Below are positions 1 to 16,265 of a DNA stretch of 32,000 nt, one piece after another. How positions within the stretch are numbered: the first letter of the stretch is position 1; the number at the start of each line of letters is the position of its first letter. This DNA is from Candidatus Saccharimonadota bacterium (lineage in GTDB: Bacteria; Patescibacteriota; Saccharimonadia; Saccharimonadales; Saccharimonadaceae): NCBI GenBank assembly GCA_016700015.1, contig CP064995.1, positions 360,001 through 392,000 on the forward strand, read 5' to 3'. The notes beneath the pieces are model-generated. The model saw nothing but the letters and a program-made list of their open reading frames with translations. It searched no databases and was not told the origin of the DNA. The position numbers and the translations under genes were made by a program.

Positions 1-411
1 TTTCCATTACACCTTGACAATTAATTCACCCGATTTCTTCGCTGATCCATGAGGCACAGTGACGCAGAAATACCTCAGCCTTGCCGGTGGTATACGCGTC
101 ACCATCAAACCACAAAGCACTAGTGCTGGTGCTACCACCTACAGCCTCAGTAACCTGCATGGTGATACCATGGCAACAGTGAATGCCGATGGTACCCCAA
201 CCATCATCACCCCCACCGGCCCCTTCGGTGAACAACTAGCAAATCATACCGCACCCACCAACGCCACACCTGGCACCAGCAACGACTACCTCGGTACTCA
301 TGCTAAAGCCACCGAAACAGACTACCTGACTCGTCCTATCCAAATGGGAGCCAGAGTCTATATACCAGAACTAGGCAGGTTTATGCAGATGGACCCGGTG
401 GAGGGAGGAAC
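1..411 (+). repeat. RHS core-end repeat, copy 1 (partner 4121-4530)
   Basis: 68-411 matches 4187-4530 with only 3 mismatches visible (all near 378-396). Weaker homology continues back to position 1 / 4121. Confidence 0.9.
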
Positions 412-931
412 GCTGAATGATTATGTGTATGCACAGGATCCGGTGAATCAAACCGATACAACTGGTGAGTTCTTGGCAAATCTAATTCGGATTGCAGTCG
501 TCGCACTGTTTAAGCTTGTACCAAAGCAAGCAGTAAAGCAAACAGCGAAGAAAGCAACGAAGGCTGTCGTAAAACAAGAAGTAAAAACGATTGCGAAGCA
601 GGTTACAAGGCAAGAAATAAAGAATATTGCCAGCACAACACCAAAGCAAATGTCGTACAACGCGCAGAAAACAGTCGACTTCCTAAAGAATAATGACTTT
701 AAGTTTTCAGCGCAATTCACTAAAGGAGGCGGCCAGTGGTTAAACGATGGTCGAGCAGGCTCGCAGCTACTACCAAAAGAGTATCTTGGTAAGCCAATAA
801 ATTATACAGAGTGGGATGTCCAGCCAATGTTGCAAAATGGCTTGCGCGGCTCGGAGCGTATAATTAGAGGCAGCGATGGGTCAATATGGCACACCGCCGA
901 CCACTATAAGACGATAATAAGAATTGAGTGA
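59..931 (+). CDS. RHS-core C-terminal region fused to a barnase/RNase Sa (N1/T1) family ribonuclease toxin domain
   Basis: The RHS repeat-associated core signature is [44 protein letters not shown]. It is followed by a Lys-rich linker and then INYTEWDV...RGSERIIRG...WHTADHYKTIIRI, which matches the microbial guanyl-RNase signature (YxE[YW]xV, RGxxRI[IV], DHYx[TS]). The homologous frame continues upstream to the window edge but has an in-frame TGA at 50-52. The GTG at 59 is the first possible restart. Confidence 0.85.
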   Translation: MTQKYLSLAGGIRVTIKPQSTSAGATTYSLSNLHGDTMATVNADGTPTIITPTGPFGEQLANHTAPTNATPGTSNDYLGTHAKATETDYLTRPIQMGARVYIPELGRFMQMDPVEGGTLNDYVYAQDPVNQTDTTGEFLANLIRIAVVALFKLVPKQAVKQTAKKATKAVVKQEVKTIAKQVTRQEIKNIASTTPKQMSYNAQKTVDFLKNNDFKFSAQFTKGGGQWLNDGRAGSQLLPKEYLGKPINYTEWDVQPMLQNGLRGSERIIRGSDGSIWHTADHYKTIIRIE

Positions 932-941
932 GAGTATAAAA

Positions 942-1487
942 ATGAATATTGAGAATATGAAAATGCTTATTACTAAATCAGGAGCGGAACTTCAAACCGG
1001 CCTCACAGACGATGAAATAAATGAGATAGAGCGCGTTTTCGGTGCTCCCATGCCCGCCGACTTTAAAGAAATGCTTCACCACTTCCTACCGATTGGTAAT
1101 ATGTTCTACGACTGGCAAAAGCCACAGAACGTGCACGATGATTTTTATCGAGATTTAGAAAATGTGATACGTTTCGATATTTCTAATAATAACTTTTGGT
1201 GCCCACTATTTGGCGACAAACCGCAAAGTATAGATGAATCGGTTGCTAAGGCTATGGCAGCGATACACAATGCGCCACCGCTTTTTCCAATATACTCACA
1301 CCGATGCGCTGCACGTAGCGCATCTCGAGATAAGTCAGTTGTAATATCACTATACCAATTCACTGACTCGGCAGTATACGGAGTAGGTATAGAGGATTAT
1401 TTGATGCGCGAATTCGGCAATCAAGACAACGTATCAATGATTGAAAACGTACATGTACCGTTTTGGTCGGAGTGCTTAGAGCTTTAA
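942..1487 (+). CDS. SMI1/KNR4 (SUKH) family immunity protein
   Basis: The ATG lies 10 nt after the toxin stop (an alternative TTG at 924 overlaps it). LTDDEINEIERVFGAPMPADFKEMLHHFLP is the typical SUKH N-terminal motif. The gene sits immediately 3' of a toxin C-terminal (CT) domain. Confidence 0.7.
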   Translation: MNIENMKMLITKSGAELQTGLTDDEINEIERVFGAPMPADFKEMLHHFLPIGNMFYDWQKPQNVHDDFYRDLENVIRFDISNNNFWCPLFGDKPQSIDESVAKAMAAIHNAPPLFPIYSHRCAARSASRDKSVVISLYQFTDSAVYGVGIEDYLMREFGNQDNVSMIENVHVPFWSECLEL

Positions 1488-6111: not shown

Positions 6112-6978
6112 ATGCAAGATAAGCACCAATCCTTATCAAAATACACAGTCCAACAATTTAACAAAGAATATCCAGACGACACAGCGTGTTTGCGTGCAGT
6201 GCTGAAAAATCGCTACGCCGAAACATGCCCTCGTTGCGGCACTATCGGGGTAAAATGGCATCCGATTACTGGACGCAAGGGATTCGTCTGTTCTGAATGC
6301 GACAGCCATGTTTATCCGCTCGCAGGAACGATATTCGAAAACTCAACCACAAGTCTGTGGAGCTGGTTTTATGTGATCTATCTATTCTCAGTCGCTCGAA
6401 ATGGCATATCGGCAAGAGAAGTAGAACGCCAACTTGGCGTCACTTATAAAACAGCATGGCGCATGTGCAGACAAATACGTTTACTCATGCAAGATAAAAC
6501 CCCAATGCTCGAAGGAACTGTTGAAGTAGATGAAACCTACATCGGTGGTAGACATCGCAGGAAGTATGGTTTTTCAAAAAAAGCACCCGTATTCGGAGCT
6601 ATTGAGAGAGGTGGATATGTTAAAACAGTCCATGTTAAAAGTACTGGAGCAAGAGTTCTCTTGCCGCAAATCTATTCAAAGGTGAAAACAAAAACAAGTG
6701 TTTATAGTGACGACTATCGTGCATATAAAAAGCTTGCGTGGTTTGGCTATGAGCACGCTTCCGTAAATCACTCTAGATGGCAATGGGCCGATGGTGATGT
6801 TTGCACTAACACAATTGAAGGATACTGGAGCCACCTTAAACGCTCCATTCGCGGAACTCACTGTTGGGTATCGAAAAAACACCTACAATTATATCTAGAC
6901 GAACATTCGTTTCGATACAATCACCGAAGCGAGGTTATTTTCCCGTACTTGATTCAACGGGTTTGGACGCTTTCTTGA
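6112..6978 (+). CDS. IS1595 family (ISXO2-like) DDE transposase
   Basis: The N-terminal zinc ribbon is CPRCG...CSEC, followed by an HTH-like segment. The DDE region has VEVDETYIGG, VYSDDYRAY and NTIEGYWSHLKR. Confidence 0.85.
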   Translation: MQDKHQSLSKYTVQQFNKEYPDDTACLRAVLKNRYAETCPRCGTIGVKWHPITGRKGFVCSECDSHVYPLAGTIFENSTTSLWSWFYVIYLFSVARNGISAREVERQLGVTYKTAWRMCRQIRLLMQDKTPMLEGTVEVDETYIGGRHRRKYGFSKKAPVFGAIERGGYVKTVHVKSTGARVLLPQIYSKVKTKTSVYSDDYRAYKKLAWFGYEHASVNHSRWQWADGDVCTNTIEGYWSHLKRSIRGTHCWVSKKHLQLYLDEHSFRYNHRSEVIFPYLIQRVWTLS

Positions 6979-7026
6979 TAAGTTTTTTGAATAATTCTTT
7001 GCTCATACGACCACTGTACATTGTCC

Positions 7027-7563
7027 TTATTTGGATGCAATATCGTTATATATAGCCTCTGCATCAAAATAATTTTTATTTTTATCTACACCACCTTTTG
7101 CTGACTTGATACGAATTAGCATGTCACCAAACCTACTACAAATATATGAGTAGCGGTTTAAGTCTTCTTCAGCGCATAAATCTTTGCTCATATCTTGAAT
7201 GGTTCCTGTATCAAATGCTTCGGGTGCTATGTATTCTTTGTACTTCTCTTGCATACAGGTCTTCTTAGTGTAGAAGTCTTTGTCGCCATCACCGTCTACG
7301 TCTTTATAGATCCCGCAAACAGATTCAATTGACGCCGATCTAGTGAAGCTCATATCCTTGGTGTCTACCGTTGTGACCCACTTATAGAAGTCCAAGTACT
7401 TGTGCTTTGGCTTTTTAGGCTTTTCTTTTACTTGAGATACTTTGGATTTATCTTCGATGGACGCATCCGATTTCGGTAATAAAACACTCGCCACTACCAA
7501 CATCGCTATAAGGTAAATGCATATTGCAAGACCTATAAAAAACCACTTCAGTATTTTCTTCAT
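7027..7563 (-). CDS. Membrane-anchored Cys-containing hypothetical protein (transposon cargo)
   Basis: 178-aa ORF with an N-terminal hydrophobic anchor (WFFIGLAICIYLIAMLVVASVLL) and an SD (gggggt) upstream. No family recognised. Confidence 0.6.
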   Translation of the reverse strand: MKKILKWFFIGLAICIYLIAMLVVASVLLPKSDASIEDKSKVSQVKEKPKKPKHKYLDFYKWVTTVDTKDMSFTRSASIESVCGIYKDVDGDGDKDFYTKKTCMQEKYKEYIAPEAFDTGTIQDMSKDLCAEEDLNRYSYICSRFGDMLIRIKSAKGGVDKNKNYFDAEAIYNDIASK

Positions 7564-7734
7564 AATATACCCCCCATGTTTGAAAATTTCTAATAAAAAA
7601 GGACAACCGTTGCAGGTTGTCTAGACTTTTCAAAGCAGGGTATACCCAACTTCTATCAACGGTTGCCCATTTCCGAAGTCGGGGTAATAAATAACCCTGC
7701 TGCATTGAAAAATCTAGACAGGGTTATTATAACA
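7564..7734 (-). promoter_or_regulatory. Candidate structured leader: extended -10 promoter, about 100-nt rod-like hairpin, then an intrinsic terminator upstream of the 7563 start
   Basis: All of these are read on the minus strand. tgttataat lies at 7734-7726. Three 7-bp helices pair 7713-7719/7619-7625, 7705-7711/7627-7633 and 7694-7700/7635-7641, with inner helices beyond them. The terminator hairpin gacaacc/ggttgtc (7600-7619) is followed by a T-run. Confidence 0.4.
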
Positions 7735-7851
7735 TACCCCTAGATATGATAGAATTGATTGAAGTTAGTATAGGCTCACGGTAAAGGTCTACCGACCTTG
7801 TTATTAAGTAATCGCTATAGTGCTTATGCTATAGTATTGATAGGTATACAT

Positions 7852-8298
7852 ATGAGTAAACATTCTATATATAATGTAGCCAGGTATATAGTAAGTAGCT
7901 ATATGGGTGATGATTTGACCTCCCTAAAGCTTCAAAAGCTTACTTATTATTGTCAGGCATGGTCATTGGCATGGGACGGGTCTCCTCTTTTTGATGAAGA
8001 TTTTCAAGCATGGTCAAATGGCCCTGTTTGTGTAGATCTGTATAAAAAACATGCGAAAACATTCGAAATAGCAAAAGACTTTCTTTCTGAAAGCGAGGTT
8101 GATAACTTTACTGATTCCCAGAAAGAGACAATGAACTCAGTCATCAACTACTACGGCCAGAAGAAGGCCTATGAGCTGAGTTCACTTACGCATAATGAGC
8201 TACCTTGGATAAAAGCTCGCGGAGACACACCCCAGGGCTACCCATCAAATACTATTATCGAAAAAGAGATTATGCAGGAATACTACGGTGGGCTATAG
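7852..8298 (+). CDS. Panacea / DUF4065 (SocA-like) domain protein, putative antitoxin
   Basis: LTSLKLQKLTYYCQAWSLAWDGSPLFDEDFQAWSNGPVCVDLY and ...LSSLTHNELPWIKAR match the DUF4065 signature. ATG 7852 is preferred over the upstream TTG at 7798. Confidence 0.75.
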   Translation: MSKHSIYNVARYIVSSYMGDDLTSLKLQKLTYYCQAWSLAWDGSPLFDEDFQAWSNGPVCVDLYKKHAKTFEIAKDFLSESEVDNFTDSQKETMNSVINYYGQKKAYELSSLTHNELPWIKARGDTPQGYPSNTIIEKEIMQEYYGGL

Positions 8299-8761
8299 GG
8301 GTAATGATAGATCACGTAAAACACCGAAATCACAAAACAACATAGCCTCAAAAATACCAAAGATAGCAAGCTTAAGCTATCTCGACAATACTGGATATGA
8401 TAAGAAAAACCCTTCGTGGAGATTCAGCATTTGTAACAATGATAATCACGAGTGGTCTCCTCATGGCACTAGCATAAAGGGTATGATATATACATATCTT
8501 ATCGCCAAGGAGAACCAGACTTGGGGAGAGATTAAAAAAGAAACGCACGATGACGGTAAAACGAAGAACCATTTCATAGATATTCAACGGATTGACCCAA
8601 ATGCACAAAAAATTCTTCAGGATAGGAATTTGATTGAAGATAGAATCTTCTCGCTGAGAATTGACAACAAAAAAAGATTGTTTGGTTACCTTAGAGATGA
8701 TGGAGTTTTCGACATCATTTGGTTTGATCCAAATCATTCGATTTGTAAAATGAAGAAATAA
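8288..8761 (+). CDS. Unrecognised 157-aa protein, candidate toxin partner of the Panacea antitoxin
   Basis: The GTG start overlaps the upstream gene by 11 nt. The N-terminus is basic and the C-terminal block is conserved-looking (RLFGYLRDDGVFDIIWFDPNHSIC). I can name no family. The stop lies 5 nt from the transposon right end. Confidence 0.5.
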   Translation: MGYRGNDRSRKTPKSQNNIASKIPKIASLSYLDNTGYDKKNPSWRFSICNNDNHEWSPHGTSIKGMIYTYLIAKENQTWGEIKKETHDDGKTKNHFIDIQRIDPNAQKILQDRNLIEDRIFSLRIDNKKRLFGYLRDDGVFDIIWFDPNHSICKMKK

Positions 8762-9028
8762 AAAATCTACTTGCTCAGAGGGTATATCCACCTAGCGAAA
8801 TGATTGACTAATTCAGAGTAGTATTATATAACAGAATAATAATCTGGGAGTACATATGCGAATTGCAGTGTTTAGTGACAGTATCAATATCCCCCCAAAG
8901 GAAAGTATCAATGTGCACACATATGATCTACTTTTGGCATTGTCACAGCACACAGACTGCACTCCAACTCTTGTTGTCTGCGATCGGGGTTGGCTAGATC
9001 GCAGCTTGCTTGCTCATTGTACTGACTG

Positions 9029-9577
9029 CTAAGACGATAGCCAGGTACCGAATTCATCCCACAGCACGGCCTCTTCCTCGCTGAAACCAACTGTTGAGTC
9101 CTCTGAGATACTTTTGCCGTCCTTGCGAAGAGAAAATATCTGAGTAATGAATGGGCCGCGCGGTTCACCAGCGGGCTCTGCTAAAATTGATCCGACCGTA
9201 TCATGAGTAAATACATGCTCGCCTTGATCATCGATATAGACGATTGTGTCACGGAGAATAACGGTCCGATCAGTTTTATGAGCCATCAAAGTCAAGATGT
9301 CATCCATTGTGAACCACTCGACCATATTTCGCATGTATGGTCCGGGAAACCCATTGAGGCTTGGGATAATCCATGATGCGTCATTGACAAATAGTGGCCT
9401 GCCGAGTTGCGCGTATGCGTCTCTTGCTTTTCGCACAGTGATAGCGACAGCGTCGTCTCCCTGTATTTCATCAAGCGACAGTTTTTGTTGCCGAACCTCA
9501 ATATCATACTTACCTAGAAATACTTTCGCATTCTCATATTTACCCATATTACCGGTGATGTACGTGATAGATTTCAT
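9029..9577 (-). CDS. Ham1/RdgB family non-canonical purine NTP pyrophosphatase
   Basis: ITGNMGKYENAKVFL...SLDEIQG...ARDAYAQLGRPLFVNDASWIIPSLNGFPGPYMR matches the ITPase family pattern. An SD (gaggag) lies upstream. Confidence 0.75.
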   Translation of the reverse strand: MKSITYITGNMGKYENAKVFLGKYDIEVRQQKLSLDEIQGDDAVAITVRKARDAYAQLGRPLFVNDASWIIPSLNGFPGPYMRNMVEWFTMDDILTLMAHKTDRTVILRDTIVYIDDQGEHVFTHDTVGSILAEPAGEPRGPFITQIFSLRKDGKSISEDSTVGFSEEEAVLWDEFGTWLSS

Positions 9578-9601
9578 TGTGCTCCTCAGATTATGCTCTC
9601 A

Positions 9602-10231
9602 TTATACATGACGGAATCGCTCATCCTCGTGTGGTTCGCGTGGAGTGTAGCGAGCATCGCGTGCAAACGTATAGATACTATCTCGCAGTGCTCTCGTACC
9701 ACCAGAATTATTGATGCGATGGGTCGCATGCTCAATAATAGCCTCGATCCCGCGGTCACGTTCAGCGTCCATGACAGTGATGAACTCCTCGAACGACATG
9801 GACTTGTCGCCCTCTTCTCGATCCCGCTGACGAAATCGATCATAGAGCGCCTCGATAGGTGTTTCAATGAGAAGAATCGATTGCTCGTGACGAATCGGTG
9901 CCCCATACTCCCGTAGACGCTCGGTGATATAACTAATGCCATCATAACTGCGGTTTCCTGATATGACGATGTCGTCATAATACCACCCTCGATCAGCATC
10001 TATCGTCAGCTGCGTCATGGTCGTATCAGCGATAAGGTCGTCAAACACAGTGCTGCCGTAGTCATGCTCCATCCGCTTCGCCCATGCGCCAAGTGGCATG
10101 TGCGGCGCGTCTAGATGGTGCGCTTGTCTCACGAGGGCGCTCGTCTCGATATGTAGTAGATTGAAATCATTTACTAATATCTTCGATATTTCGGACTTGC
10201 CAGATGCATGATAACCGGTAACAAACAGCAT
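9602..10231 (-). CDS. P-loop kinase-like protein (dephospho-CoA/nucleoside kinase-like)
   Basis: The Walker A variant is FVTGYHASGKSE, right after the ATG at 10231, which follows aaggagag. The longer 241-aa ORF start lacks an SD. The subfamily is uncertain. Confidence 0.5.
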   Translation of the reverse strand: MLFVTGYHASGKSEISKILVNDFNLLHIETSALVRQAHHLDAPHMPLGAWAKRMEHDYGSTVFDDLIADTTMTQLTIDADRGWYYDDIVISGNRSYDGISYITERLREYGAPIRHEQSILLIETPIEALYDRFRQRDREEGDKSMSFEEFITVMDAERDRGIEAIIEHATHRINNSGGTRALRDSIYTFARDARYTPREPHEDERFRHV

Positions 10232-10279
10232 AATCTCTCCTTGATGTTGTTTGGTGTAGAGTACCACAAAAAAATATAT

Positions 10280-10308
10280 TTGACAATAATCATACTTCAA
10301 GTTATAAT
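10280..10308 (+). promoter_or_regulatory. Consensus sigma70-type promoter for the 10344-13081 operon
   Basis: TTGACA (10280-10285), a 17-nt spacer, then TATAAT (10303-10308). It lies 35 nt upstream of the ATG. Confidence 0.65.
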
Positions 10309-10343
10309 GCACCACAATACCAATCAATGGAGTCCTATATAAG

Positions 10344-11339
10344 ATGACTTTTCAGAGAGTACGTGAGCTTGATCCGCTCGGAATTGACCGGGAGCTTCGA
10401 GACCTTCCGGCTCTTAATGGATCAGCTGACATTGGCGCCATCGGCACAATTGTCGACGGTGTTGTCGCCCGTCTCGATACGACAACTTACGACAAGGATT
10501 CAGCGACGGCAGCAATGCGGGACCTCGACTTTCTTCTCAGTTCCAGTCTCCGGCACGGAGCTGATTTAGTAGTTGAAGGCGGCAGGATCGAGTCAGTCCT
10601 GCTCGGTTTAGGGAAAATTGCTTGCATGATCCCCCGAGGTACCGTATCGACATACGCGCTTGCCAATCCTCGAGGCGAGCGAGAACGGTCATTTACAGGT
10701 TCACCCGAAGAGCGCTTGTTTATCGAGTCTGTACGAAGCGGAGCAGAAAGTGTCGAGTCTAGCCTCGAGACATACGTCAACGAAGGAAAAATTGCTGGTC
10801 TTGCCGCGATGGAGAGTAGTATCGCTGACATGATTACCTCTATCATCGACGTGAAGCGCGGCGTGTCACCTGCGTACTTCAGTGGTCAGCTCAGGCCGTA
10901 TTTCGAGCCACTGACGATAGGTGGTAAGTTGTATGCAGGTTCGGGTGGTGCGCAACTTCAATTTATCGCAGTCGACTACCTGCTATGGGGCGTGGATTGT
11001 GACAATCCATTCTATCAGAATTACTTCGCCGACAATGTCCGCTATCTCAGTCCCGAACAACGTGCGTATCTCAAACTAGGTATCCACAAAAACGACGGCA
11101 AAAGCATTTTACGGTCAGCTATCGAAGATAACGACGGTCAGCTGTCTAAGCAGGCGATACGTGTTCTGCAATGTCTCAAAAAGTTTCGCTACCCGCATCG
11201 CAAGCTTGCACGTGATAACTTCAAGATCCGCCCTGACGGTAGCGTGGGTAGTGGCGTCTATACGACTGACATCCTTGATGTATTGCTCAATGAGACAATT
11301 GGAGCGATAGAGAAACTCGAAGGAATCGCGCATGAGTAA
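10344..11339 (+). CDS. PrnB-like (DUF1864; TDO/IDO-related heme enzyme superfamily) protein
   Basis: The blocks AAMRDLDFLLSSSLRHG, SFTGSPEERLFIESVR, QLRPYFEPLTIGGKLYAGSGGAQLQ...LLWG and KFRYPHRKLARDNF...GSGVY resemble the monodechloroaminopyrrolnitrin synthase family as I recall it. Confidence 0.5.
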   Translation: MTFQRVRELDPLGIDRELRDLPALNGSADIGAIGTIVDGVVARLDTTTYDKDSATAAMRDLDFLLSSSLRHGADLVVEGGRIESVLLGLGKIACMIPRGTVSTYALANPRGERERSFTGSPEERLFIESVRSGAESVESSLETYVNEGKIAGLAAMESSIADMITSIIDVKRGVSPAYFSGQLRPYFEPLTIGGKLYAGSGGAQLQFIAVDYLLWGVDCDNPFYQNYFADNVRYLSPEQRAYLKLGIHKNDGKSILRSAIEDNDGQLSKQAIRVLQCLKKFRYPHRKLARDNFKIRPDGSVGSGVYTTDILDVLLNETIGAIEKLEGIAHE

Positions 11340-12420
11340 GGACGTTGCAACATTTGCAGCAGGCACGATCCATAATCCATGTACTGTTTCGAAAACACCT
11401 CAAATGGTGCCGTCACGTCGGATGATGATCAAGTATCCGGCTCGACTAGAAGCGATGGCGCTGGATCCAGCAAAAATCGCAACCAATGATTCGCTTGTCT
11501 ACACTGCGGGACAAATCGACGTTTGCGTCGGCCTCTACAAAACTGTCACAGTTACGATAGACGAGACGAAACCGTCAGAGCTCATCATAACACCTACGAC
11601 AGGCCGCCGGACACTTGTCCTTCACGCTGCTCGCATGATGCAAAAGGCACTCGATATCCGCGGTCAGCTCACTGTTGACGTCAAAGACGAGGCAGGGCTG
11701 AGGCACTGTGGGCTTGGCTCGAGTAGTGGTACGATTGCTAGTGTGGCAAGCGCGATCAATGAACTGTACGGTCATCCAATCGCCGCACACGATTTGAGTC
11801 TCTATTGCGCGCAAAATCATGGTGAAGAGATCGATGGAAGTGATGATACGCTCACGGCTGTCCAATGTATCGGTGGATCGGTCGTATGTGGCAATTATGA
11901 GGGCGGTATTATCGTCCTTGCGGGCGAAGCAACACCGATAGCGCAGGTAAAAATTCCGACTGACTATAGTATCGTCATTGGTGTGCCAAATGATTTTGAT
12001 CATCCTGACTCGCTCGACTTGATGCAGCGTGAGGAGGACAACATGAAGGCGTTTATCACCACTGGCGAAGCGTACGGTCCACAAATTGCGTACCGCCTGG
12101 TTCATGATGTGCTTCCCGCGCTTGCGCTTGGAAATTTTGCTCCGTGCAAGTCGCTCGTATTCGACTATCGTTGGGATATGGGAAGCATACGAAATTGCTC
12201 ATTTGTCCTACCGCGCATCAATGATATTGCCGAAGCCCTGAGGCCTTTGCAGGAAGACTCAGCGGTCATAATGCTGTCACTTTCATCCGTCGGACCTGGA
12301 TTCTTTGCGATCACAACCGATCCAGTGCGAATCCGGACTCTATTTGAAGCGCAACATATGACAACAATTGAAACGGTCGTTCACAACGGCACCTATAAGA
12401 TAGGAGATATCGATGGTTAA
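11332..12420 (+). CDS. GHMP kinase superfamily protein, beta-ribofuranosylaminobenzene-5'-phosphate (beta-RFAP) synthase-like
   Basis: The GHMP motif is LRHCGLGSSSGTIASVASAINELYG. The N-terminal IKYPARLEAMALD and the later IGGSV...GGIIVLAG and SIVIGVPND blocks resemble the beta-RFAP synthase subfamily. The gene overlaps its upstream neighbour by 8 nt. The start is uncertain (in-frame Met codons at 11404, 11422 and 11425). Confidence 0.55.
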   Translation: MSKDVATFAAGTIHNPCTVSKTPQMVPSRRMMIKYPARLEAMALDPAKIATNDSLVYTAGQIDVCVGLYKTVTVTIDETKPSELIITPTTGRRTLVLHAARMMQKALDIRGQLTVDVKDEAGLRHCGLGSSSGTIASVASAINELYGHPIAAHDLSLYCAQNHGEEIDGSDDTLTAVQCIGGSVVCGNYEGGIIVLAGEATPIAQVKIPTDYSIVIGVPNDFDHPDSLDLMQREEDNMKAFITTGEAYGPQIAYRLVHDVLPALALGNFAPCKSLVFDYRWDMGSIRNCSFVLPRINDIAEALRPLQEDSAVIMLSLSSVGPGFFAITTDPVRIRTLFEAQHMTTIETVVHNGTYKIGDIDG

Positions 12421-13081
12421 GCAGACACAGGGTGAGAAGAGTTTTTGGAATGATGCGGACATGGCGGCGTATTTCGCCGCAAAACCTGCGGATCCACGAA
12501 TCCGGGATTTCGTCGCGACGCATTATGCGCATCCAAGCGGCCAATCCGCACTCGACTTGGGATGTGGCGGCGGTCGTCATAGTGAATTTCTTGCTGAGGC
12601 GGGGTTCGACGTCGTCAGCGTCGATCCAAACGAAGGGATGCGTCGTGCCACACGGATACGCCTCGCTTCAAAGGGACTTACTGCGACGATACGCGAAGGC
12701 GAGATTCTCGCTATTCCTTCGCCTGATGAACAGTTCGATCTCGTCGTGACAACAGGTGTACTCCATCAGGCAAATACGTCAGCCGAGTATGAGCACGCGC
12801 TCAGTGAACTGCACCGAGTGATGAAACGAGGAGCGTTTGTGTGCCTAAATATCTTTACGAATGCCGCTTGGGATCCGACGTACCAAACAGTAAGCAGGGA
12901 CGGGTATTCGGTGATGACTGCAGAGGATTTACCCATGACGCTATGGCCGCGTAATCATTTTCTTGAGCGTATGGAATGGCGTGGTTTTGCACTAGTTTCG
13001 GATTATCCCGAAGAAGTGCGCGAAGAAAACACCGGGAATAGGGCTGTTTACCGTGCAAACTTTCAGAAACGACAAATATAA
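12413..13081 (+). CDS. Class I SAM-dependent methyltransferase
   Basis: Motif I is ALDLGCGGGRHSEFLAEAGFDVVSVDPNEGM, with a post-I acidic residue and DLVVTTGVLHQ. The gene overlaps its upstream neighbour by 8 nt. Confidence 0.85.
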   Translation: MVKQTQGEKSFWNDADMAAYFAAKPADPRIRDFVATHYAHPSGQSALDLGCGGGRHSEFLAEAGFDVVSVDPNEGMRRATRIRLASKGLTATIREGEILAIPSPDEQFDLVVTTGVLHQANTSAEYEHALSELHRVMKRGAFVCLNIFTNAAWDPTYQTVSRDGYSVMTAEDLPMTLWPRNHFLERMEWRGFALVSDYPEEVREENTGNRAVYRANFQKRQI

Positions 13082-13132
13082 AGTATTTGTGCGCGAGCAC
13101 GGTGTTATACTAAGGAAAAAGGGGAGTAAGCT

Positions 13133-13648
13133 ATGGCACTAGCACGCGGAACCATGCGCTTAGAAAGTTATAAAGAGGCCTGGGTGGAACGGTTTGAAGA
13201 TGAAGCCGATCGGCTGCGAGCAATATTCGGCGACAGGGCGCCAATTGAACATATCGGCAGCACAGCAATCCCGGGTATGATGGCTAAGCCGATCATTGAC
13301 ATGATGGTGGGAGTTGAAAGCCTCGACGTTGTGAGCCAAGCTATGGTAGCAAAGCTCGAGAATATGGGCTACCGCTCCATGCCCGATCGGGTTACTCAGG
13401 ACGAAATATTCATGCCGAAAGGTCCTGATAGTCGCAGGACGCACTATTTGCACATTGTACCGCGGAGTAATAGACGCTGGCACAATACCGTACTGTTTCG
13501 AAATTATCTACGCGCGCATCCGGCGGCTAGGGAAGAATATGCTGACCTGAAGCGAAAGCTTGCAATCCAGTATCCTGATGATCGCGCTAGCTATACCGAC
13601 GCAAAGACCGGTTTTGTTGCCGATATCTTGCGCCGAGCTACACAGTAG
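13133..13648 (+). CDS. GrpB family (UPF0157, nucleotidyltransferase-fold) protein
   Basis: IEHIGSTAIPGMMAKPIIDMMVGV, HYLHIV, WHNTVLFRNYLRAHP and EYADLKRKLA are the characteristic GrpB blocks. Confidence 0.85.
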   Translation: MALARGTMRLESYKEAWVERFEDEADRLRAIFGDRAPIEHIGSTAIPGMMAKPIIDMMVGVESLDVVSQAMVAKLENMGYRSMPDRVTQDEIFMPKGPDSRRTHYLHIVPRSNRRWHNTVLFRNYLRAHPAAREEYADLKRKLAIQYPDDRASYTDAKTGFVADILRRATQ

Positions 13649-13688
13649 TTGTTTAGGATAGGTGAGATGCAGTATAGTAGTATTCCTT

Positions 13689-14225
13689 ATGTCAACTAAT
13701 AAAGAACCGGCTTTGCCTCCCGATATATGCGGTTTTATTGACACTTTTGCGCGGTATGAGCCCGACGATAAAAATGAATTATCGCCTGTAATAGCAGTGG
13801 AGATTGATTTTATCACCCAGTTCGCAGCCGTATTTAATCACTACGCGCGCCCACAAAGATCAGATGGTACCAATGATGGTTTTCGTGAGCTGTTTTCAAC
13901 CGACGAAGTTCGTAACTTACTCGATAATCGGCCAGTCGAGCTGGCGCGCCAGTTAGCGCGGCTATCGTTTGAAATGATAGCGCAGTACGAGCAATCAAGG
14001 GGTGAAAGTATCTCGCGAGACGAATTACACCTCTACCTTGAGGTGGCGGAGCGTTGGAATGTGCGCATAGCCGATATGTGCGACGATGAAGACATATATT
14101 TTCGCGAACTAAACCAAAGGCTGGCAGTGCTCAGAGCGCATTACGGAGAAATAGGCAATAAAAAGGCAGTGAATGCAATAGGCCGCTATATCTGGCCATA
14201 CGTATTCTCTCGTTTTTCTGAATAG
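13689..14225 (+). CDS. Hypothetical protein
   Basis: 178-aa ORF from ATG 13689 (alternative GTG at 13662). No recognisable motif. Confidence 0.5.
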   Translation: MSTNKEPALPPDICGFIDTFARYEPDDKNELSPVIAVEIDFITQFAAVFNHYARPQRSDGTNDGFRELFSTDEVRNLLDNRPVELARQLARLSFEMIAQYEQSRGESISRDELHLYLEVAERWNVRIADMCDDEDIYFRELNQRLAVLRAHYGEIGNKKAVNAIGRYIWPYVFSRFSE

Positions 14226-14252
14226 TAGTAGCATAGTGCTATACTTTTCAGT

Positions 14253-14867
14253 ATGAAGTGGTCTGCAGTATTGTCGGTGTTTGAGAAAATGCCAAGCTAT
14301 ATGGCAACATGGCTCCTCATTGTCATGTCACAGGCCGGTCTTGTGCTCAGTATAGTGCTCACCAAAGATACCCGCTGGTTTACCTGGCACTTGAGCCGAC
14401 TGGGTGAGGGCGGTCAGGTGGCATCGGCTATTTTTAACTTCACCATGGGTATGTCGGCAGTCATTCTAGTAATTATTGCCACTCGTCTTGTGAGCGATAT
14501 GCGGCAGACACGATGGCATCATGGTGGTATTACGCTGCGAAACGTATTGATTGGGATCGCGTTTTGCTGGATAGGTGTCGCGTGCTTCCCATTTGACAGA
14601 TACGCGGTAATCCATAACGTGTTTGGTTACGGACAATTCCTTCTCGTTAGTGTGGTAATGCTGAGATTGCGGCATATCTGCCCGCGATTTTCCAGCCGTA
14701 CTTACATAATAGGCGTGGCAAGTGTTGTAGGGGTATCGCTATTGCTTGCCAGTTTTCACTTACTACATATTGGTTCAGTGCTGATGGCTGAACTGCTAGG
14801 ACAATTCACACTGTTTTCGTGGTTGCTTTCTCTGACGCACGATGTCAATCCAAGAAAACATGCGTAA
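14253..14867 (+). CDS. Polytopic membrane protein (unknown family)
   Basis: 204 aa with about 5-6 hydrophobic segments. An extended -10 (tgctatact, 14237-14245) lies 7 nt before the ATG. Confidence 0.6.
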   Translation: MKWSAVLSVFEKMPSYMATWLLIVMSQAGLVLSIVLTKDTRWFTWHLSRLGEGGQVASAIFNFTMGMSAVILVIIATRLVSDMRQTRWHHGGITLRNVLIGIAFCWIGVACFPFDRYAVIHNVFGYGQFLLVSVVMLRLRHICPRFSSRTYIIGVASVVGVSLLLASFHLLHIGSVLMAELLGQFTLFSWLLSLTHDVNPRKHA

Positions 14868-14872
14868 GGCTA

Positions 14873-14901
14873 TTGCATTTCTATTTTGGTTGTGCTATAA
14901 T
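14873..14901 (+). promoter_or_regulatory. Promoter for the DEAD-box helicase gene
   Basis: TTGCAT (14873-14878), a 17-nt spacer, then TATAAT (14896-14901) preceded by TGc. It leaves a leader of about 115 nt. Confidence 0.55.
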
Positions 14902-15023
14902 ATAAACGTTACATTCGATAGAATGCCGAGCCGGCTCTACCGCTACACTCCAAAGTGGGCACCAGAATCAATCTCGTTATTCGCCTGACTGTAGATTGAT
15001 ACTATCTCACTAAAGGAGGCTCT

Positions 15024-16265
15024 ATGCCCTATATCAACAGAGGGAAACAACATGCTCGACCGAGCTATAATGGCACACCGCGACCAGGTGGTACGCGTGG
15101 ACGCAATCGACCGAGGCCGCAGACTGGTGGCCGTGGTCAAAAACGTGGTAAAAGCAGCGTGATTCACCCCAGCAAATACATTAACAAAGCGGTTCAGCCA
15201 GCCGACGAGGTGGCGTATGACGCGCAGCATAGTTTTGCAGATTTTGCCTTTGGCCCAGAGCTCGCGGCCAACATCGCCAGTAAAGGTTACGTGACGCCAA
15301 GCCCAATTCAAGACCAAGCGATCAAGCCAATTCTAAACGGGCAAGATGTGATTGGGCTTGCCAACACCGGGACCGGCAAAACCGCCGCCTTTTTGCTGCC
15401 AATTATTGAACATCTGCGCGGGGTAGCCCTGCGCCCCAGTGTACTGGTAGTGACGCCAACTCGGGAGCTTGCCCAGCAGATTGACGCTGAATTTCGAATT
15501 TTTGCAAGAGGCATGAACCTGTACTCTACACTAGTAGTCGGTGGAATGAATATTGATCGTCAAATTCGTGACCTACGCCGTCGCCCGCACATCGTCATTG
15601 GTACGCCAGGCCGAATGATCGACTTACTTGATAGGCGTGAGCTGCACTGTCAGAATATGGGCGTGCTGGTACTGGATGAAGCTGACCGCATGCTTGATAT
15701 GGGCTTTTTGCCCAACATCCGCCGGATTGTCGCGGAAATGCCTCGCCAGCGCCAAACGCTATTTTTTAGCGCTACTATTACGCCTGAAATTCAGGCACTG
15801 ACATCTCAGTTTTTGGATAACCCCGTGACAATTAGTGTGCGTACGTCTGAAACGAGCGACCACGTCGAGCAAGATGTGGTTGAATATCGCGGTGCTGATG
15901 ATAAGTATGACCAGCTCGTGGCGCTGCTACGCAAAGACCACTACGACAAAGTACTGGTGTTTTGTGGCAAAAAGTTTGGCGCCCAGCGCCTAGCCGACAA
16001 ACTAAACAAAACAGAACTATCGGCAGCAGCAATTCATGGTAACAAATCGCAGAGTCAGCGTCAGCGAGCGCTTGATGCCTTTAAATCAGGCAAAGTTGCG
16101 GTACTGGTAGCGACCGATGTCGCGGCCCGTGGCCTTGACATTCCCAATGTTAGCCACGTCATTAACTACGACACACCCCAGGTGTACGAAGACTACATTC
16201 ACCGCATTGGCCGGACTGGTCGTGGTGGGGCCAAGGGCCACGCCCACACCTTTGTTGAAGTCTAG
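15024..16265 (+). CDS. DEAD-box ATP-dependent RNA helicase with Arg/Gly-rich N-terminal extension
   Basis: The motifs present are the Q motif (FADF...PSPIQ), ANTGTGKTAAF, PTRELA, VLDEADRMLDMGF, SAT and HRIGRTGRGG. An SD (aaggagg) lies upstream. Confidence 0.95.
   Translation: MPYINRGKQHARPSYNGTPRPGGTRGRNRPRPQTGGRGQKRGKSSVIHPSKYINKAVQPADEVAYDAQHSFADFAFGPELAANIASKGYVTPSPIQDQAIKPILNGQDVIGLANTGTGKTAAFLLPIIEHLRGVALRPSVLVVTPTRELAQQIDAEFRIFARGMNLYSTLVVGGMNIDRQIRDLRRRPHIVIGTPGRMIDLLDRRELHCQNMGVLVLDEADRMLDMGFLPNIRRIVAEMPRQRQTLFFSATITPEIQALTSQFLDNPVTISVRTSETSDHVEQDVVEYRGADDKYDQLVALLRKDHYDKVLVFCGKKFGAQRLADKLNKTELSAAAIHGNKSQSQRQRALDAFKSGKVAVLVATDVAARGLDIPNVSHVINYDTPQVYEDYIHRIGRTGRGGAKGHAHTFVEV

Follow-up and report, generated by a model that had tools for sequence, protein, structure and literature searches.

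A conserved gene module of Patescibacteria and DPANN archaea that probably converts tryptophan into a methylated nucleotide-like compound

What does a bacterium with a reduced genome do with a cluster that combines a PrnB-like heme enzyme, a GHMP-fold protein, a methyltransferase, a P-loop kinase and a Ham1-like pyrophosphatase? The cluster lies in a 32-kb stretch of DNA from a Candidatus Saccharimonadota bacterium (contig CP064995.1, positions 360,001 to 392,000), which was analysed at its full length and is called the window below. The initial annotation had taken it for a secondary-metabolite-like cluster, unexpected in one reduced genome. Instead, the window carries one copy of a metabolic module of five genes that is conserved and common to Saccharibacteria, other Patescibacteria and DPANN archaea, recurrent among core genes, and this module probably converts tryptophan into a methylated nucleotide-like compound. 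Bacteria of the candidate phyla radiation (CPR) and DPANN archaea make do with very small genomes and few biosynthetic abilities. That both groups keep five to seven genes together, with a putative O2-independent alternative for the first step, implies that the product matters to their lifestyle.

A recurrent module with two alternative entry enzymes

When one genome of each GTDB species was scanned, 52 loci were obtained, in which open reading frames (ORFs) were labelled against the window proteins and the remainder clustered. A GHMP gene of the family was present in 49 loci, 26 of which carried at least 4 kb of sequence on either side of it (full-flank loci). Close to this gene, a methyltransferase was found in 39/49 loci (23/26 full-flank loci), a Ham1-like gene in 43/49 (24/26) and a P-loop kinase, of the window type or of divergent AAA_18 types, in 42/49 (24/26). 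PrnB-like genes accompanied it in 27/49 loci (19/26), a U32-family protein in 14/49 (6/26) and one or the other in 41/49 (25/26), and the two never shared a locus (0/49; 0/26). Comparing gene neighbourhoods, as the initial annotation had proposed, showed the genes co-conserved in about 50 loci, and neither this co-conservation nor the family assignments failed. The kinase and Ham1 genes, which it had tied functionally to the divergent operon, do belong with it, as their full-flank counts indicate. GrpB, which it had counted as a cluster member, was found near the GHMP gene in none of the loci (0/49; 0/26) and is ruled out as a pathway member.

The three core enzymes are physically linked, since fusion proteins join them. 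PrnB-GHMP fusions were found in L028 (739 aa), P0186 (726 aa) and P0185, and GHMP-methyltransferase fusions in the archaeal L045, L047 and L058 (572 to 596 aa), in P0183 and in several representatives of similar length; elsewhere the methyltransferase gene directly followed the GHMP gene (3') in most loci. PrnB-like homologues with 41 to 48% identity (P0008, P0035) showed the same PrnB-GHMP-methyltransferase arrangement with Ham1 and the kinase nearby, and more distant homologues were found in other gene contexts. The nearest relative of the window locus was L012 (Saccharibacteria UBA6223; GHMP 66% identical), with the same order Ham1-kinase-PrnB-GHMP-methyltransferase and, after it, the DUF7103 and DEAD-box helicase genes that the window also has. 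The module's surroundings were made up of core genes (DEAD-box helicase, tuf, S10 operon), and Nudix hydrolases were further neighbours in 9 loci.

By record label, the bacterial loci belonged to Saccharibacteria, Paceibacterota, Woesebacteria, Jorgensenbacteria, Microgenomates and Minisyncoccia, and the archaeal ones to Woesearchaeota, Pacearchaeota and unclassified archaea. An aIF5B-like gene, identified by eye, adjoined the module on one archaeal contig. Six module contigs (L019, L020, L022, L023, L034, L054) were labelled 'uncultured Gammaproteobacteria' or 'Bacteroidales' and are probably mis-binned or mislabelled contigs of metagenome-assembled genomes. One of them carried tandem duplicates of the PrnB-like (366 and 382 aa) and Ham1-like (187 and 199 aa) genes (L020, 3943-7000). 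The GHMP homologue search gave 339 matches, mostly unnamed or called 'predicted sugar kinase'. The family is more numerous than the PrnB-like one, and it is small: at E <= 1e-3 it comprises 307 representative clusters out of 1.84 billion.

Loci that lacked PrnB encoded a protein of about 375 aa of the peptidase-U32 family (Pfam 3e-13; weak similarity to UbiU), in which four cysteines were invariant among the module-linked members. In 13 of the 14 loci this protein had a partner, either a HisC/CobD-like pyridoxal phosphate (PLP) enzyme (c9; 128 bits for hisC and 120 bits for CobD; PLP lysine retained) or an amino-acid racemase of the Asp type (164 bits; with both catalytic cysteines). None of the 27 PrnB loci had either partner. 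In a rough neighbour-joining tree built from the GHMP proteins, PrnB-type and U32-type loci were intermixed: L061 (U32) paired with L023 (PrnB), L043 (U32) was sister to L033, L039 and L044 (PrnB), and L021 and L022 (U32) fell inside a Saccharibacteria PrnB clade. This mixing indicates that the entry module was probably swapped several times, the downstream enzymes staying orthologous.

The characterised U32 proteins RlhA, TrhP and UbiU/V are O2-independent aromatic-ring hydroxylases, and TrhO/TrhP as well as UbiIHF/UbiUV form pairs of O2-dependent and O2-independent enzymes. By analogy, the PrnB-like protein would be the O2-dependent route, and the U32 protein with its alpha-carbon-labilising partner the O2-independent route, to the same or a very similar intermediate. 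The proposed equivalence of the two versions rests on their mutual exclusion, the partner enzymes of the U32 proteins, the mixed GHMP tree, the conserved cysteines and the retained PLP lysine.

Predicted activities of the module enzymes

The PrnB-like protein matched PF08933 with 82.6 bits (cutoff 27), and solved PrnB structures were matched over the full length (9dfg, 4.7e-37, residues 4-322; 2v7i, 2e-34), which bears out its assignment to the PrnB family in the initial annotation. PrnB rearranges the ring and decarboxylates its substrate to an aminophenylpyrrole, an aryl amine that bears no hydroxyl group. In an alignment of 26 cluster-linked PrnB-like proteins with two solved PrnBs, His285 of the window protein fell on the heme-ligand histidine of PrnB, which we take to be His313 in the P. 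fluorescens enzyme, and was invariant in all 26 homologues. The same histidine is position 299 in the FbPrnB numbering (PMC11791213). Also invariant in the 26 homologues were G201-G202, S303 and Y104, aligned with Gly209/210, Ser319 and Tyr104 of FbPrnB, and about 30 further positions were invariant and common to solved PrnB. In FbPrnB, Gly210/211 and Ser319 hold the tryptophan carboxylate and Tyr104 narrows the indole pocket (PMC11791213); the position of Gly211 is Ala in the CPR proteins. The invariance of the heme histidine and substrate contacts speaks for a substrate that resembles L-tryptophan and binds as it does in PrnB, and the predicted heme enzyme probably acts on tryptophan.

The GHMP protein matched only the generic domain in Pfam (GHMP_kinases_N, 31.5 bits vs 22.3). 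In NCBIfam it remained far below the cutoffs of both homoserine kinase (thrB, 27.2 bits, cutoff 168) and beta-ribofuranosylaminobenzene 5'-phosphate (beta-RFAP) synthase (NF040726, 22.8 bits, cutoff 328). The resemblance to beta-RFAP synthase reported in the initial annotation was thus real, yet no stronger than that to homoserine kinase, and judged by sequence the protein forms a subfamily of its own, equidistant from both. An AlphaFold2 (AF2) model (predicted local distance difference test score, pLDDT, 89; predicted template modelling score, pTM, 0.91) retrieved ForT first in Foldseek (8aoz, E 2.4e-14; template modelling score 0.67 query-normalised and 0.73 ForT-normalised). When the P-loop region was removed from the profile, ForT was the best PDB match over the C-terminal two-thirds, at a marginal E of 0.068 with unrelated chains at 0.13 or above. 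This match ran through motif III (LSSVGPGFFAIT vs LSVTGPACFAFT), which reads S-S-V-G-P in the family, like S-V-T-G-P in ForT and not the canonical kinase G-S-G-P.

The pyrophosphate loop of the family reads R-H-C-G-L-G-S-S-S, of which H125-C-G-L-G-S130-S-S132 is invariant; it was matched by motif position and not by alignment to ForT. The pyrophosphate-contacting histidine is His99 in ForT and His98 in the RFAP synthase of M. thermautotrophicus (PMC8183095, PMC6787355), and the ForT loop comprises His99-Ser104 and Thr106 (PMC8183095). An invariant R38-x6-D45 lies upstream, its two residues 7 positions apart. ForT was alignable to the family only at motif III. We infer from the stated equivalence of ForT Arg33 to MTH0830 Arg26 that this spacing is that of the essential Arg/Asp pair of RFAP synthase. 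At position +14 from R38 the family has Asn, where RFAP synthase would have, by that spacing, its p-aminobenzoate-binding Arg (PMC6787355). The family also carries about 28 extra conserved N-terminal residues compared with RFAP synthase and ForT. A profile of the N-terminal 75 residues gave no matches in the PDB, a homologue search with a 40-residue ForT fragment gave none either, and tblastn of the GHMP protein against plasmids for annotated RFAP synthases returned spurious matches only.

The GHMP protein is therefore best described as a candidate, either for a PRPP (phosphoribosyl pyrophosphate)-dependent glycoside synthase of the ForT/RFAP-synthase kind or for a kinase. We lean towards the synthase because the expected product of the neighbouring PrnB-like enzyme is an aryl amine without hydroxyl, a better fit to an RFAP-synthase-type reaction than to a kinase, and because two further conserved genes are predicted to act on nucleotide-type phosphates.

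The family calls of the initial annotation for the S-adenosylmethionine (SAM)-dependent methyltransferase, Ham1 and GrpB all stood well above Pfam thresholds. The methyltransferase (Methyltransf_11, 70 bits vs 21.2) was similar to TehB, UbiE and CpaM. A CmoA/CmoB-type enzyme was considered and rejected, with a faint match to Methyltransf_9 (CmoB-type, E 0.011) and no CmoA among the 25 NCBIfam matches listed. The P-loop kinase on its own gave sub-threshold AAA_18/ADK matches only. A profile built from 16 family members matched best the adenylate-kinase-like, AdkA-like SSO1041/UPF0200 (2e-17), and also AK9 domains, UMP-CMP kinase (8e-9) and dephospho-CoA kinase (CoaE, 4e-8). The protein is a P-loop kinase, as first described, and the label CoaE-like was too specific: SSO1041/AdkA-like proteins, AK9 and UMP-CMP kinase outscore CoaE, so that the fold is that of nucleoside monophosphate (NMP) kinases and not specifically CoaE. 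G6, G11, K12, G92, R94 and R136 were invariant, and the P-loop lysine with two arginines (G-N-R94 and R136) can be read as the usual equipment for transferring a phosphoryl group to a phosphate monoester.

The Ham1-like protein (Pfam Ham1p_like, 66.7 bits vs 22.5) had Mj0226 as its best PDB match (2e-15) and KomB as its second-best solved relative (1e-11); the family also matched PH1917 and ITPA. The 41 cluster-linked Ham1-like proteins keep T8, N10, K13, E37, Q39, D66 and P78-G79-P80, that is, the T-x-N-x-x-K, E-x-Q, D and P-G-P elements of inosine triphosphatases (ITPases) with the catalytic Lys, Glu and Asp (K13, E37, D66). The Pfam alignment ended at residue 140 (profile position 146/186), as did most PDB alignments approximately, and the C-terminal third has its own conserved E159 and W173. 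The best equivalog reached 97 bits vs a cutoff of 203, below what an XTP/dITP diphosphatase identity would take. Canonical ITPases have their purine-recognising motifs in the C-terminal part. Catalytic residues kept alongside a divergent C-terminal part suggest an active pyrophosphohydrolase on a non-standard substrate.

Proposed pathway and competing explanations

In the pathway that we propose, the heme enzyme would bind L-tryptophan as PrnB does and convert it with O2 into an electron-rich, aminophenylpyrrole-type aromatic; in loci without it, the U32 protein with its four conserved cysteines and the HisC/CobD-like enzyme or Asp-type racemase would do so without O2. The GHMP enzyme, acting like beta-RFAP synthase or ForT, would then join the aromatic to PRPP, giving a ribose-5'-phosphate adduct, that is, a nucleotide analogue, which the methyltransferase would methylate. 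The P-loop kinase would phosphorylate the monophosphate further, and the Ham1-like protein, with its altered base-binding end, would cleave the triphosphate back to the monophosphate. Such cleavage could set the active phosphorylation state or prevent the analogue from entering RNA and DNA. Taken as a whole, the scheme, from tryptophan through phosphoribosylation and methylation to a phosphorylation state set by the kinase and Ham1-like pair, is tentative, and we give it a probability of about 0.4.

Several points weigh against it. We infer each of its chemical steps. In NCBIfam, the 22 GHMP family members tie between homoserine kinase and RFAP synthase (best E-values 2e-13 and 8e-13, respectively), a result that does not discriminate between the two branches, and in Foldseek homoserine, mevalonate, galacto- and IspE kinases lay within one order of magnitude of ForT. 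ForT Arg19 and Arg135 bind PRPP and Glu211 and Lys263 are catalytic, and of these Arg135, Glu211 and Lys263 could not be aligned to the family. An invariant Q-N-H-G-E-E segment aligned with the G-E motif of homoserine kinase. It is also not obvious how a U32 protein with a racemase or aminotransferase would give the compound that the PrnB rearrangement gives. The kinase is no proof of a nucleotide intermediate, because adenylate-kinase-like enzymes also phosphorylate non-nucleotide phosphates (MfnE). Finally, to our knowledge CPR bacteria are not known for heme synthesis, and heme would need to be acquired.

Part of this evidence would fit a GHMP protein that is a true ATP-dependent kinase, phosphorylating a hydroxylated tryptophan or indole-amine made by the PrnB-like oxygenase, or by U32 together with a decarboxylase resembling CobD, before its methylation, with the P-loop kinase and Ham1 in ancillary roles. 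Such a route would be similar in logic to psilocybin biosynthesis (decarboxylase, heme monooxygenase, kinase, methyltransferase) or to the methyl-phosphate ester steps of kinase-plus-methyltransferase pairs. Homoserine kinase is the best PDB profile match of the family (1.5e-6), besides the NCBIfam tie and the G-E alignment just described, and the PLP enzyme scores equally as HisC and CobD, both acting on phosphorylated amino compounds; the pairing of PduX, a GHMP protein, with CobD is a known precedent that counts on the same side. This explanation, however, leaves the P-loop kinase and Ham1 without a role although they are conserved like the methyltransferase (24/26 each), the ForT-like motif III and the top structural match to ForT favour the synthase branch, and the known PrnB product is non-oxygenated (PMC11791213), offering no hydroxyl group. 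We consider it unlikely.

A second explanation concerns role and is compatible with the chemistry of the proposed pathway. The module would make a toxic or signalling nucleotide analogue, directed against phages or the host cell or acting as an alarmone with GreA-like proteins, and Ham1 would serve as self-protection or off-switch. It is consistent with KomB of the Kongming defence system as the second-best solved relative of the Ham1-like protein, with GreA/Rnk-like proteins flanking 27 of the 49 loci, archaeal ones included, with the toxin-antitoxin and insertion sequence (IS) islet that adjoins the module in the window, and with the tryptophan-derived antiphage chemistry that has been proposed for the Ukko system (bioRxiv 10.1101/2025.01.08.631966). 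PADLOC, on the other hand, gave a generic methyltransferase match only, the setting is one of core genes (helicase, tuf, S10 operon) with synteny to L012, and the module lacks the effector genes usual in defence islands, such as those for a nuclease or NADase; this role appears quite unlikely.

Very unlikely, in our estimate, is salvage or detoxification, in which an aromatic base or a breakdown product of an amino acid, scavenged by the organism from its host, would be ribosylated and methylated and its nucleotide forms controlled. The enzyme set parallels the thiopurine cycle (HGPRT, TPMT, kinases, ITPA), CPR and DPANN organisms depend on scavenged nucleotides and amino acids, and the methyltransferase resembles TehB-type enzymes; a dedicated oxygenase in O2-dependent and O2-independent versions, together with the fusions, points instead to the making of a specific compound. 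That the genes just happen to lie side by side, or form a one-off secondary-metabolite island gained by horizontal transfer, would suit the IS1595 transposase and low-GC stretch just upstream but is refuted by co-conservation with fusions in about 50 loci of two domains, and is extremely improbable.

If the chemistry of the tryptophan-to-nucleotide scheme is true, the module would provide the first PrnB-type reaction outside antibiotic pathways, a new use of an RFAP-synthase/ForT-type carbon-carbon glycoside synthase and a new natural nucleotide analogue. A further-reaching version is a long shot: a previously unrecognised pathway shared by CPR bacteria and DPANN archaea would make a methylated C- or N-linked aminophenylpyrrole nucleotide from tryptophan and PRPP, with swappable entries, one aerobic with heme and one anaerobic of the U32 iron-sulfur type, and the cycling between triphosphate and monophosphate by the kinase and the Ham1-like protein would yield a lineage-specific cofactor or signal, possibly with a GreA-like readout.

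Locus layout, neighbouring genes and relation to known systems

Gene coordinates in the window were taken from the ORF list with its translations (Table 1). The six genes, the two 8-nt overlaps and the perfect promoter described in the initial annotation were all recovered at their places by the ORF list and promoter scan. PrnB-like, GHMP and methyltransferase genes form the coupled operon that it had described, with overlaps at 11332-11339 (PrnB-like/GHMP) and 12413-12420 (GHMP/methyltransferase). A GGAG at 10329-10332 lies 11 nt 5' of the PrnB-like ATG. The promoter was the sole perfect match in the window (0.01 expected from shuffles), and the Ham1-like and kinase genes run divergently from the intergenic region that bears it. 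For the kinase, the ATG at 10231 is the most likely start, which gives 209 aa, the length of the ENA gene call on the identical contig L001; a GGAG-like site precedes this ATG. Perfect TTGACA-(16-18)-TATAAT sequences were also seen directly 5' of the PrnB-like gene in L035 (10358-10386), echoing the window promoter, and just 5' of the kinase-GHMP-methyltransferase genes in L036 (4086-4114).

Table 1. Coordinates of the module and of neighbouring features in the 32-kb window
Feature	Coordinates	Strand	Basis
Protein of 290 aa with C-terminal barnase-type ribonuclease domain, then overlapping SUKH/SMI1-family protein	59-1487		
IS1595-family transposase	6112-6978		
SocA/Panacea antitoxin-domain gene	7798-8298		
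157-aa ORF overlapping the SocA/Panacea gene	8288-8761		no Pfam match
Ham1-like NTP pyrophosphatase	9029-9577	-	ORF list, Pfam Ham1p_like
P-loop kinase, full extent of ORF	9602-10327	-	ORF list
P-loop kinase, likely gene (209 aa)	9602-10231	-	start at ATG 10231
Perfect TTGACA-17-TATAAT, sigma-70-type promoter	10280-10308	+	112-bp divergent intergenic region
Predicted histidine-ligated heme enzyme, PrnB family	10344-11339	+	PF08933
GHMP-fold enzyme, distinct CPR/DPANN subfamily	11332-12420	+	GHMP_kinases_N, AF2 model
Predicted class I SAM-dependent small-molecule methyltransferase	12413-13081	+	Methyltransf_11
GrpB-family gene, outside the conserved module	13133-13648	+	PF04229
GrpB and 187-aa ORF between methyltransferase and DUF7103 genes	13133-14225		187-aa ORF without Pfam match

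The slot between the methyltransferase and DUF7103 genes seems variable, being filled in the window by GrpB (165.8 bits vs 25.5) and the 187-aa ORF and in L012 by a Nudix-box protein (9725-10315). Directly upstream of the module, the stretch from 6112 to 8761 (GC content 0.38) looks like a mobile or toxin-antitoxin islet, and the pair at the beginning of the window resembles a secreted RNase toxin and its cognate immunity protein. In the related loci, GreA/Rnk-like small proteins of two families (about 155 and 180 aa) form the flanks mentioned above (e.g., L038 10463-10933, L045 5-508, L058 2956-3444), including those of archaeal-labelled loci, where a GreA homologue is unexpected. Often directly 5' of the PrnB-like gene in Saccharibacteria (L054 5988-6566, L023 1486-2052 and 11 other loci), and absent from the window, is a protein of about 190 aa that matches nothing in Pfam or NCBIfam; by eye it combines a ribbon-helix-helix-like C-terminus with a nucleoside-deoxyribosyltransferase-like N-terminal domain, and it may be a ligand-sensing regulator.

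PrnB and GHMP homologues were also seen in other settings. On a contig otherwise Saccharibacteria-like, a PrnB homologue (39% identical) next to tuf and the S10 operon precedes genes for a PALP enzyme, an ornithine-cyclodeaminase-like enzyme, a deacetylase, a class III aminotransferase and a nonribosomal peptide synthetase condensation-domain protein (L007 7001-15026; also L008), a context that differs from the module and is natural-product-like. In a third kind of cluster (L005 16-3151, L006 744-5094), a PrnB homologue (36% identical) overlaps the end of a phosphoenolpyruvate (PEP)-synthase-like gene (PPDK_N and PEP-utilizers domains) and co-occurs with a convergent Asp/Glu racemase gene that follows it. 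GHMP paralogues of about 30% identity have their own conserved cluster in Woesearchaeota and Pacearchaeota (L055, L056, L057, L059, L062; about 6400-15900), whose genes, by eye, encode a split PEP-synthase-like pair, a PLP decarboxylase, an epimerase fusion, an adenylate-forming enzyme, a nitrilase-like protein, a Nudix protein and a methyltransferase.

The initial annotation knew of no described pathway with this combination, and full-text literature on PrnB with GHMP, PrnB with CPR or DPANN, COG1907, DUF1864 and PF08933 likewise yielded no description of the module. Run on the window proteins, PADLOC matched the methyltransferase generically (mad2) and nothing among the other five proteins, which rules out a catalogued anti-phage defence system; the Ukko system, which mentions PF08933, has a different gene set.

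Among known systems, PrnB of the pyrrolnitrin pathway shares about 30% full-length homology, the heme histidine, the Gly-Gly/Ser carboxylate contacts and the indole-pocket Tyr104. It differs in its partners, which in the module are GHMP (sometimes fused), methyltransferase, kinase and Ham1 in place of the PrnA and PrnC halogenases and PrnD, and in its hosts, pseudomonads or Burkholderia as opposed to CPR and DPANN. No halogenase (prnA, prnC) or PrnD-type genes were found in the window or related loci, and the pyrrolnitrin pathway itself is ruled out. Beta-RFAP/RHP (ribofuranosylhydroxybenzene 5'-phosphate) synthase of methanopterin biosynthesis and ForT/PyfQ of formycin and pyrazofurin biosynthesis share with the module protein the GHMP fold, the His-x-Gly-x-Gly-Ser loop, a putative N-terminal Arg...Asp motif and the aryl-amine acceptor expected from the neighbouring PrnB-like gene, whereas the module protein falls far below the NF040726 equivalog cutoff and is equally close to homoserine kinase. 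None of the other genes for methanopterin or formycin is present, and both pathways are ruled out.

Psilocybin biosynthesis (PsiD, PsiH, PsiK, PsiM) likewise runs from tryptophan through a heme oxygenase, a kinase and a methyltransferase, but its enzyme families are unrelated to those of the module and it has no counterpart for the NMP-type kinase and Ham1. The Ham1-like protein has the fold and catalytic Lys, Glu and Asp of the ITPase/Ham1 house-cleaning enzymes (Mj0226, RdgB, ITPA) and of KomB, and is set apart by scores below every equivalog cutoff, its divergent C-terminal third and its place in a biosynthetic-looking operon. As in TrhO/TrhP (5-hydroxyuridine, ho5U, in tRNA) and UbiI/H/F versus UbiU/V, a U32 protein replaces a putative O2-using enzyme in otherwise orthologous clusters, except that the O2-dependent member would here be a heme enzyme of the PrnB type and that the U32 protein is paired with a PLP enzyme or racemase. 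The parts are known enzyme families, and what appears new is their combination, its distribution over CPR bacteria and DPANN archaea, and the alternation of PrnB and U32 at its entry.

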